DNA from: Chitinophagaceae bacterium
Lineage (GTDB): Bacteria; Bacteroidota; Bacteroidia; Chitinophagales; Chitinophagaceae
Direction of reading: 5' to 3'
NCBI GenBank assembly: GCA_036375835.1
Contig: DASVBM010000405.1
Location: 1 to 27,583 of the forward strand
Length of the DNA: 27,583 bases
Part shown: positions 25,068-27,583 of the stretch, piece after piece
Layout: the number at the start of each line of letters is the position of its first letter
Position numbering within the stretch: the first letter of the stretch is position 1
Program-made: the position numbers and the translations under genes
The notes under the pieces: model-generated
Seen by the model: the letters and a program-made list of their open reading frames with translations, nothing else
Told to the model about the DNA's origin: nothing
The model's database searches: none

Positions 25068-26729
<1,662 letters not shown>

Positions 26730-26752
26730 GTGATCAAAAGATAGTGAAAGAG

Positions 26753-26787
26753 GCCGTCTCAATACATTTTGAGGCGGCTTTTTCTTT
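26753..26787 (+). terminator. Intrinsic terminator of pyrG
   Basis: GCCGTCTCAA / 6-nt loop / TTGAGGCGGC, then TTTTTCTTT. Confidence 0.8.
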
Positions 26788-26821
26788 GCCTCTGCACCCC
26801 CCATTTCCGGGGTGCAGAGGC
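26788..26821. repeat. Perfect 13-bp inverted repeat
   Basis: GCCTCTGCACCCC (26788-26800), 8-nt spacer, GGGGTGCAGAGGC (26809-26821). Confidence 0.85.
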
Positions 26822-26968
26822 GGTTTAACCCTGCGCAAGGCATCACCCGGCCAGGAACTATCTTTTCGTGGCCAGCCCGGGTTTTTTCTCCGAAAATCCC
26901 GCAAATACTTCCATGCTCCCTCCGCTGCAGTATTGGAAGCGGACCCGTGCCGGCCATGTCCGGAGGTT

Positions 26969-27053
26969 GTCTACCCCTGGCTCACAGTTTGGCTACCCTT
27001 TGTTTACCCCCAGGGTAAACGAGGGGTAAACGAAGGGTAAACGAAGGGTAAAC
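26969..27053. repeat. Inverted array of 11-bp-period repeats (core GGGTAAAC)
   Basis: Four direct units end at 27020, 27031, 27042 and 27053. Inverted units begin at 27002, 26991 and 26969; the 26980 slot is degenerate. Confidence 0.9.
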
Positions 27054-27225
27054 CAGCTGAGACTATGGCCATGCCTTTTCCCGGTTTTGGCAGGTTCCGG
27101 GACCGCTCGGGATCTGTTATAGAAATGCAAAAAACCAGCTGAACTGTAACCTTTTGCCGGTAAAAAAGTTATACGGGAAGGAAAGGTCCCCTGTGGGATC
27201 AACATTTTTCAAAAAACCATCGATT

Positions 27226-27583
27226 ATGGCAAAGTTCAACAATGGAAATCTCAGCGGATTAATCGGCCCGGTGGTAGCATGCACATTGGGCGGTAAGACC
27301 TACCTCCGCAGCAGACCCGAACGATCGAACAAGCCAGCTTCGCCGGCGCAGCGCGCGCAGCGAACCAGTCTGGGAATGGTAAGGCTGTTTGTTACCCCGT
27401 TCAGGCCGGTATTACAATTAGGTTTTGCAGAAGCCTCGTCAGAAGGCAATGCACACAACATTGGGATCAAACGGAACTTCAGGCGGATCCTCCAGGGTGA
27501 GCACCCGGCGGTTTCCTCGACTACAGCAAGGCCACCCGGTTCCGCTGCTGCGGTGACTGCGGTAACATTCGCCAATCGGCCTT
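27226..27583 (+). CDS. DUF6266-like Bacteroidota protein, 3' truncated by the window, with a possible frameshift near 27516
   Basis: Absent from the ORF track because no stop falls in the window. MAKFNNGNLSGLIGPVVACTLGGKTYLRSRPERSNKPASPAQRAQR matches my recollection of the DUF6266 N-terminus (SGKxGxVV...GKxYxRSxP..SxxPPTxAQxAQR). Confidence 0.7.
   Translation, partial: MAKFNNGNLSGLIGPVVACTLGGKTYLRSRPERSNKPASPAQRAQRTSLGMVRLFVTPFRPVLQLGFAEASSEGNAHNIGIKRNFRRILQGEHPAVSSTTARPPGSAAAVTAVTFANRP

Follow-up and report, generated by a model that had tools for sequence, protein, structure and literature searches.

A stretch of 27,583 nucleotides from a Chitinophagaceae bacterium (GenBank assembly GCA_036375835.1, contig DASVBM010000405.1, positions 1 to 27,583 of the forward strand; hereafter the window) ends within a gene of the DUF6266 family, and upstream of this gene, at 26969-27053, lie two mirror-image runs of 11-bp repeats. 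The question that this locus raises is what such an array represents: a docking site for a protein, a selfish repeat, a module of curved DNA, or a hairpin or RNA that acts by the pairing of its arms. A preliminary description, made from the letters of the window, had proposed a phased protein-loading site or the end of a mobile element, possibly bound by the basic N-terminus of the DUF6266 protein. The reading that we favour, to which we assign a probability of about one half, is that the array is this species' version of an undescribed cis-acting module that precedes DUF6266 genes across Bacteroidota, that it provides a docking site for a protein, and that it has been amplified in this genome. 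A literature search returned no paper mentioning DUF6266, only irrelevant matches to the repeat unit GGGTAAAC, and no published description of the array.

Anatomy of the array

The array is arranged about a 3-bp centre of symmetry at 27010-27012, which reads CCA in the window and CTG in most of the copies found elsewhere in the same genome. To the right, on the coding (+) strand of DUF6266, four GGGTAAAC units with GAR spacers occupy 27013-27053 at an exact period of 11 bp (exact matches at 27013, 27024, 27035 and 27046), and Tandem Repeats Finder (TRF) reports a repeat at 27012-27053 of period 11, 3.8 copies and 93% matches, with a score of 77. To the left, at 26969-27009, lie four further 11-bp units with a TTACC or CTACC core, thus presenting GGTAA on the - strand; three of the four are clear, namely an exact GGGTAAAC at 27002, a one-mismatch copy at 26969 (both read on the - strand) and GGCTACCC at 26991, while a degenerate unit, GCTCACAG, stands at 26980 where the other is expected. 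Five exact GGGTAAAC units are thus found in the array and none in the rest of the 27.6-kb window. Within each unit a GGG or CCC triplet alternates with a patch rich in A.

These matches confirm the architecture given in the preliminary description, which had reported that every left/right pair is symmetric about 27011 and that the arms can pair in more than one register, one of which reaches CTCA/TGAG. The dyad extends beyond the arms recognized there, since 26952-26968 (GGCCATGTCCGGAGGTT) mirrors 27054-27070 (CAGCTGAGACTATGGCC). The outer left part contains a CCATGT core common to the two subfamilies of copies described below (A and B), and the outer right part is in part common to subfamily B as CAGCTCCGAACCTGGCC. 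As single-stranded DNA the segment 26948-27074 has a folding energy of -29.8 kcal/mol compared with -17.5 +/- 2.8 for shuffled sequences (z = -4.4), and as RNA the dyad gives z = -3.7 and -3.4 on the two strands.

Copies of the array in the same genome

The window is one contig (C358) of a 2.97-Mb assembly of 512 contigs that is 94% complete and probably derives from a soil metagenome (G000), and copies are named here by their contig. A pattern of two units gives 47 matches in this genome, whereas the reversed control gives 0 and 1, and clustering of the units yields about 16 loci of one architecture, all intergenic and beside terminator hairpins; this number is a lower bound because the assembly is split into 512 contigs. 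The single DUF6266 gene of the genome is the one in the window, and the other 15 copies have no DUF6266 nearby.

The copies fall into two subfamilies. Subfamily A comprises four copies (C358, C111, C143 and C154) with about 400 bp in common, corresponding in the window to 26746-27153 (+ strand), where, as delimited by BLASTN against the genome, a hairpin (H1) and a left part of 225 bp precede the array and a right part follows it; identity to the window is 83% for C154 (over 26746-27100), 79% for C111 (over 26747-27153) and 70% for C143. Subfamily B comprises twelve copies with about 260 bp in common. A and B have in common only the segment from about -64 to about +75 relative to 27013, which covers the array with its outer dyad. 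Pairwise identity among copies is graded, from 93% in the right arm and 74% in the left arm to 57-68% in the near flanks and 40-49% in the far flanks, the last falling to 25-31% between A and B. All right-arm units present in the 16 copies contain GGGTAA without change, and the left-arm cores TTACCC, ACCC, AC and ACC are invariant or nearly so. The number of units, four plus four, is kept in 15 of the 16 copies, C187 having lost exactly two units (22 bp).

The two arms are not mere complements of each other. The inner 17 bp of the dyad pair in nearly all copies, and Watson-Crick pairing amounts to 79% in the inner unit and to 59-64% farther out. Several mismatches between the arms are themselves fixed: G.A occurs in 12 of 15 copies, and G.G and C.C occur in 10 of 15 each. 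There are few compensatory changes. For this reason the arms are taken to be constrained as sequences and not as a stem.

The array cannot be ascribed to faulty assembly, because about 16 diverged copies stand on separate contigs with unique flanks and because an independent assembly gives the array a high depth: in the Logan assembly of one public soil-metagenome DNA run the summed contig depth is 73-93 over 26988-27073 and about 6 on the flanks. That run holds the stretch as short contigs only, with 26816-26901 uncovered; no RNA sequencing run holding the stretch is listed.

Phased arrays upstream of DUF6266 genes across Bacteroidota

DUF6266 is present in 45 of 301 sampled genomes of the family Chitinophagaceae (15%) and in several other families of Bacteroidota. 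The suggestion in the preliminary description that genes of this family are flanked by short periodic repeats is borne out by TRF scans for periods of 10-11 bp in two independent sets, 36 loci from the same family and 27 loci from seven other families. Within 500 bp upstream of the gene the scans recovered 40 such repeats in the first set and 30 in the second, 2.2 per kb in both, compared with 10 (0.28 per kb) and 7 (0.27) far upstream, 1 (0.05) and 1 (0.06) inside the gene, and 4 (0.08) and 6 (0.16) downstream. Phased arrays are thus enriched about tenfold upstream of DUF6266 in both sets. Exact 5-mers occurring at least three times in 11-bp phase are likewise found in 13 of 35 upstream regions and in none of 33 downstream controls.

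A recurrent layout can be recognized in these loci, in which two mirror 11-bp arrays meet at a dyad at about -420 to -230 from the ATG; in the congener G002 and in G004 the dyad centre reads CTTCGGGAATTCCCGAAG. The units themselves differ from locus to locus. Inverted CTTCG/CGAAG arrays are present in G002, G004, G098, G127 and G243, with a CGAAC type in G249; inverted ATACC/GGTAT arrays in G299; and inverted TTACC/GGTAA arrays, the type of the window, in G127, G244 and G698, the last a member of another family in which eight xTTACC units face a single GGTAAAG. Numbers and spacings of units also differ between the two arms, as with 11 versus 22 bp in G002 and eight units versus one in G698, so that the arms of other DUF6266 loci cannot pair in register. 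In G127 and G244, which belong to one genus, a GGTAA array lies 300-450 bp upstream of DUF6266 with its units on the coding strand, as in the window. Between the G000 elements and DUF6266 loci elsewhere the likeness is confined to the arrays, the flanks giving no match; the genes near DUF6266 vary between the loci read.

Many of the loci have in addition a direct array of 10-bp period, for example TAAGTTGGTC in 3.9 copies, which is placed at about -195 to -120 and so separates the 11-bp arrays from the promoter box. Units of these 10-bp arrays include, besides TAAGTTGGTC, AGACAAATAC and GGCAAAACNC, often with a G-CAA core (examples are L076 1294-1332, L074 2250-2288, L088 1314-1347 and L102 2237-2271), and the window has no clear counterpart. 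The Bacteroidota -7 box (TAnnTTTG) is seen at about -80 to -110 in several DUF6266 loci, and where it is seen the arrays lie upstream of it; the leader that follows contains an ACTAGT or CCGGTTACA motif and then an A-rich segment ahead of the ATG. In G127 and G244 a further repeat of 11-bp period, GGTTTGGTTGT, precedes the GGTAA arrays (L074 2665-2706, L075 2670-2720, L063 and L064), and this composite is multicopy, with at least five loci in G127 of which one only is at DUF6266.

Arrays that stand apart from the gene are not confined to the genome of the window: G098 has at least 10 array loci for two DUF6266 genes, and G002 has five, two of these at its two DUF6266 genes. Two orphan CCCGAAC arrays of G002 (L118 and L119, at about 273400 on C1 and about 1131250 on C3) stand beside near-identical copies of a 144-residue open reading frame (ORF; MYTFNETEWIRLVF...) which has no Pfam match, an arrangement that suggests a duplicated larger element. 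A 190-residue ORF beside an orphan array of G002 was considered as a relative of DUF6266 and rejected (hhalign probability 0.7%).

Unit type and protein clade

Unit sequence was found to co-vary with the clade of the protein. On a tree of 59 DUF6266 proteins with 20 labelled loci, two unit classes, CGAAG-type and xTACC/GGTAx-type, require three changes, compared with a mean of 6.95 for shuffled class labels, and only 0.2% of shuffles are as low as three. G127 carries both classes on different paralogs. The DUF6266 protein of the window is only 27% identical to those of its congeners, which have CGAAG arrays, and is nearest to proteins of other families with xTACC arrays (L133, at 36% identity, and L146). 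Unit type thus follows the DUF6266 clade rather than the host, an effect of the host being argued against because both classes occur in G127 and because the window protein groups with xTACC proteins from other families. For the same two reasons gene and array seem to be inherited together, and have probably been transferred together.

The DUF6266 protein

Proteins of the family are very uniform, with a length of about 212 residues. The AlphaFold2 model has a mean predicted local distance difference test score (pLDDT) of 87 and presents a low-confidence N-terminus that is basic and glycine-rich and includes a β-hairpin, three helices at residues 43-90 and, at residues 111-212, a predicted β-sandwich of the FN3 type. 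The sandwich matches FN3 domains with a VIA Z of 11.5 and a root-mean-square deviation of 2.1 Å over 93 residues (Foldseek E of about 7e-4), and phage FN3 and tail proteins match it with E of about 3e-4. The N-terminal 95 residues, folded and searched alone (pLDDT 75), gave no match above Z 4.8, a search in which a weak or missing match excludes nothing, and the lack of a recognizable DNA-binding fold neither supports nor excludes DNA binding. Searches with the whole protein recovered FN3-type matches alone, all over its C-terminal half. Sequence searches of PHROGs and the PDB with DUF6266 gave nothing significant.

Occurrence outside the genome of the window

Searches of six congeners and of 34 further relatives did not recover the element, nor did BLAST against 300 genomes of the family. 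Plasmid and phage collections searched with blastn in distant mode gave no match; among JGI metagenome contigs the pattern of the dyad centre gave none and the two-unit pattern gave 11, all of them unrelated chance pairs. The GTDB species representatives contain one match, in an Ignavibacteriales contig (CAVXTT010000031.1, L021 at about 1868-1935), which is not the element: it is a tandem of six units of an identical 11-mer, GAAGGGTAAAC, in an AT-rich intergenic gap with no mirror arm, and may be kin or chance. When the 301 family genomes were searched for three GGTAAAC units in 11-bp phase, for which controls were near zero, multicopy arrays were recovered in G127 and G244, in G256 and perhaps in G131.

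Genomic setting of the copies

The neighbours of the copies are unrelated housekeeping genes, among them pyrG, ahcY, tnaA, rocD, nadC, a thiolase gene and trxA. In most copies the element is separated from an upstream gene on the same strand by 22-54 bp and a hairpin, H1, and many copies lie between convergent genes. In the copies H1 reads AGGCCGYCTCAA...TTGAGRCGGCCT. A second hairpin, H2 (AGGCTGCCCTTTTGAGACAGCCT), is restricted to copies with the end of a convergent gene on their right, and pairs better on the opposite strand; H1 and H2 are alike in inverted orientation, and within sub-subfamilies the similarity of the copies spans from one to the other. Among the long H1-type hairpins of the genome 12 of 16 are within 450 bp of an array, and the four isolated ones resemble plain terminators (three were read). 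A canonical TAnnTTTG box has no conserved place in or near the copies on either strand. The gene downstream of ahcY lacks conservation at the DNA level, and the ORF downstream of copy C154 is cupin-like. A link to HU-like proteins finds no support, as both HU-like genes of G000 are on contigs that carry no array.

In the genome of the window near-identical terminator hairpins of the form GAGGCYGYCTCAA...TTGAGRCRGCCTC are rare, and most adjoin the array repeat; they are found at 26750-26785 of the window, on C171, C210, C282 and C309, and in the congener G001 (L029-L035). In G001 an IS1182-like insertion sequence borders this hairpin at eight or more places, mostly within about 100-370 bp of a contig end, as if the hairpin were a target or a terminal part of that element.

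The gap between tnaA and the next gene allows a comparison across the genus. In the congener G006 it contains one plain terminator in about 100 bp, and in G000 it contains H1, the element and H2 in about 360 bp; the gap of G006, the one empty site that could be used, is too diverged for alignment base by base, and no target duplication could be read there. The same gap in G002 (L072, G002:C2) has two copies of another hairpin repeat, AAAAAAGACATAAG..., and different species of the genus thus seem to fill it with different repeats.

Subfamily-B copies also contain, at +75 to +108 from the first right-arm unit, a mini-frame of 10 codons, M-V-Q-T-R-L-S-P-G-I-stop (for example in C163, C192 and C278). 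Some of its changes look synonymous and the stop is replaced in frame in C216; about half of the copies lack the ATG, and the frame is shifted in C490.

Neighbouring genes of the window

The upstream neighbour of the element, outside its limits, is pyrG (CTP synthase; 25080-26729, + strand), an ORF of 549 residues that is 91-95% identical to pyrG of the congeners. It is followed by H1 at 26750-26785 (+), which in the window reads GAGGCCGTCTCAA-N6-TTGAGGCGGC followed by a T run; this hairpin is likely the terminator of pyrG and is a member of the rare hairpin family linked to the repeat. Directly 3' of H1, at 26792-26821, lies a second perfect hairpin, CTCTGCACCCC-N8-GGGGTGCAGAG, which is kept in the four subfamily-A copies. 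In five congeners pyrG has another downstream neighbour, after a short gap with a simple terminator and neither array nor DUF6266, and four of the five run on into a peptidase-like gene; the contig of the sixth stops within pyrG. Synteny is broken after pyrG, and therefore no clean boundary of the element can be read there.

Between the element and the gene, at 27154-27225 (+), lies a DUF6266 leader specific to this copy, with a CCGGT motif and an A-rich ttcaaaaaaccatcgattATG before the ATG. Similar leaders precede other DUF6266 genes, for example ...ttaaaaaacccttgattATG and ...CCGGTTACA..., and a canonical TAnnTTTG box was not found in it. The DUF6266 gene itself (27226-27583, +) is cut by the contig end after its N-terminal 119 codons; over the 119 residues available it matches Pfam PF19781 with 24.2 bits for a cut-off of 23.4 (23.9 bits in the search of the whole genome), and it aligns with 34 full-length members at 25-36% identity.

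Discussion

The positional link between phased arrays and DUF6266 across the phylum, the tracking of protein clade by unit type, and the retention of GGGTAA in 16 copies whose flanks have largely decayed all point to a protein-docking site. According to the mechanism that we favour, the mirror runs of 11-bp units, GGTAA on the right arm and TTACC on the left, with their cores on the same face of the helix, would form a platform for cooperative docking. We infer that the binder would be a sequence-specific protein that travels with a portable DUF6266 cassette, and that the platform may control the expression or the upkeep of that cassette. DUF6266, through its basic N-terminal part, is the one candidate binder with a consistent link to the arrays. 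In the genome of the window the array together with flanking DNA has been copied to 15 further intergenic sites, where it behaves as a non-autonomous dispersed repeat of the REP/BIME kind (repetitive extragenic palindromic sequences and bacterial interspersed mosaic elements) or of the kind of a miniature inverted-repeat transposable element (MITE), the multiplied copies sitting in neutral ground next to terminators.

Several observations weigh against this reading. Clear arrays are present in only about 40-55% of DUF6266 loci, and G256 has GGTAAAC arrays and no detectable DUF6266 gene. Fifteen of the 16 copies in the genome of the window are far from DUF6266, and many lie between convergent genes with no promoter to control. 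The clustering of unit classes on the protein tree could be produced by kinship alone, reflecting co-inheritance of linked DNA rather than recognition. The predicted structure of DUF6266 gives no sign of a nuclease, a transposase or a classical DNA-binding fold. Lastly, no transposase, terminal inverted repeat or target-site duplication was found that would explain the spread, the search for a parent transposase having covered the IS1182-like family; the suggestion in the preliminary description that the array is the end of a mobile element accordingly found no support. A more specific form of the docking proposal, that DUF6266 is itself a sequence-specific coat of its own upstream 10-11-bp array, gene and array making up a portable module from which the array has been seeded at other sites, is possible, although we hold it only tentatively.

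Foremost among the alternatives is a purely selfish non-autonomous repeat, a foldback MITE or REP/BIME-like sequence, in which the arms would serve as terminal or recognition repeats and whose adjacency to DUF6266 would be an accident or the outcome of a common use of permissive gaps. It would accommodate the 16 diverged, lineage-specific copies in two subfamilies, all of them intergenic, as well as similarity that runs from H1 to H2 in each sub-subfamily, the plain tnaA gap of G006 beside the filled gap of G000, the H-type hairpins abutting the IS1182-like element in G001, and the lack of a fixed place for a promoter box in the copies. A phylum-wide and position-specific link with DUF6266 is however not expected by accident, and in G127 and G244 as well a GGTAA array precedes DUF6266. 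The repeats are central in the element and not at its ends, and a repeat of another kind flanks the sole Y1 (RAYT-like) gene. In G000 tblastn with the N-terminus of the IS1182-like protein gave no match, a null that covers this one transposase family in a type of genome whose insertion sequences are often unassembled. We consider this explanation unlikely.

It is also rather improbable that the array is a sequence-independent module of curved DNA, generated by slippage and tuning the DUF6266 promoter, whose units drift while being co-inherited with the gene. The wide variation of units among loci at a constant period of 10-11 bp, the constant position upstream of the -7 box, the alternation of GGG/CCC with A-rich patches, and the loss of exactly two units in C187, as slippage would give, all agree with such a module. 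The invariance of GGGTAA in 16 copies despite flanks of 40-70% identity nevertheless goes beyond what curvature needs, the mirror orientation of the arms recurs in many loci, four plus four units are fixed in 15 of 16 copies, and the orphan copies between convergent genes have no promoter to tune.

A functional hairpin or cruciform, which might insulate the cassette by blocking or terminating transcription or might serve as a folded single-strand recombination site like an integron attC or a REP, would be consistent with the significant folding of the dyad as DNA and as RNA on both strands, with the pairing of the inner 17 bp in nearly all copies and with the position of the copies beside terminators. 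We regard it as very unlikely, in that pairing drops past the inner units, the mismatches are fixed with few compensatory changes, the arms of other DUF6266 loci are unequal, no T run follows the dyad, and the upstream gene is already terminated by H1.

That the element is a multicopy gene for a small structured RNA with the array as its main stem is hardly credible, since a conserved long-stemmed core of about 230 nt, followed in subfamily B by the terminator-like H2, is set against the lack of an Rfam family (Rfam 15, E-value mode, 26500-27583; the best hit, mir-204, is a chance hairpin match at 23.4 bits against a threshold of 48.4), the lack of a conserved place for the TAnnTTTG box on either strand, the restriction of H2 to sites where a convergent gene ends and its better pairing on the opposite strand, the unequal conservation of arms with fixed mismatches, and a likeness between subfamilies A and B that is limited to the array.

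Comparison with known systems helps to place the docking module that we propose. In parC of plasmid R1, the site bound by ParR in type II partition, 11-bp iterons form two blocks upstream of and around the linked promoter, and the omega repressor of pSM19035 recognizes heptad arrays with direct and inverted units; both kinds of array are cooperatively bound by a small protein encoded just downstream. The arrays described here are similar in having units, direct and inverted, spaced at about one helical turn upstream of a linked gene. They differ in being chromosomal and in occurring at 15 further sites, in that no gene for a partition nucleoside triphosphatase was seen at the DUF6266 loci read, though none was searched for, and in that DUF6266 has an FN3 domain and no detected ribbon-helix-helix fold. 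Iterons of a plasmid or phage origin were also considered and rejected, the 16 copies lying between ordinary chromosomal genes and having no plasmid or phage match.

The likeness to REPIN-RAYT pairs and to the BIMEs of Proteobacteria lies in a single-copy gene flanked by a repeat of which further copies are scattered in intergenic gaps, chiefly behind the 3' ends of genes or in convergent gaps; these copies are lineage-specific and form mosaics with further hairpin motifs (H1 and H2 in the present case). DUF6266 is however neither a Y1 transposase nor a recognizable enzyme, its 11-bp units have a direction and form two mirror arrays, unlike palindromes of 20-40 bp, and the copies number only about 16, a lower bound. 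Membership of the REPIN-RAYT class was rejected, as the sole clear PF01797 gene of the genome (G000:C265:2722-3225) is flanked by a different repeat and C265 has no GGGTAAAC array. That Y1 gene is flanked on both sides by several composite repeats of about 170 bp with the hairpins CCCCGGCCTTCAGGCCGGGG and GGGCTTTAGCCC (C265 2000-3406, L047), an organization that has the appearance of a classic REP-RAYT locus and bears no relation to the GGGTAAAC array. Centromere-adaptor and REPIN-RAYT pairs are the closest working analogies.

Two further comparisons are less close. Pho boxes and other sites of the OmpR-PhoB family are direct repeats of a 6-8-bp core with a period of 11 bp. The GTTTAC core on the opposite strand of the array resembles the half-sites of OmpR and PhoP, and four units in a row would fit two dimers; the array, in contrast, has been inherited along with one gene family in different hosts, the type of its units varies with the gene clade and not with a host regulon, it has a mirror second arm, and a whole context of 130-450 bp has been duplicated and not the sites alone. 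With MITEs, foldback elements, ERIC and Correia repeats the element has in common a 130-bp imperfect palindrome within a 260-410-bp repeat that is intergenic, multicopy and diverged into subfamilies. It differs from them in its inverted repeats, which are central, built of tandem subunits and unequally conserved in their arms, and in the lack, in the searches described above, of terminal repeats, target-site duplication and parent element.

For the DUF6266 family the phased module with its clade-linked units offers a first testable handle, and the genome of the window presents a natural experiment in which a core has stayed almost unchanged at 16 sites while the flanks decay. If no binder exists, the element would be one more lineage-specific intergenic repeat, curiously sited before one gene family. 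If a specific binder does exist, array and protein would form a new repeat-protein pair beside REPIN-RAYT, centromere-adaptor and iteron-Rep systems, and might explain part of the unexplained phased arrays in Bacteroidota. Should DUF6266 itself prove to be the coat of its array, it would represent a new protein-plus-repeat system of Bacteroidota, parallel in logic to the REPIN-RAYT or centromere-adaptor pairs and built on an FN3 protein whose N-terminal domain gave no fold match above Z 4.8.

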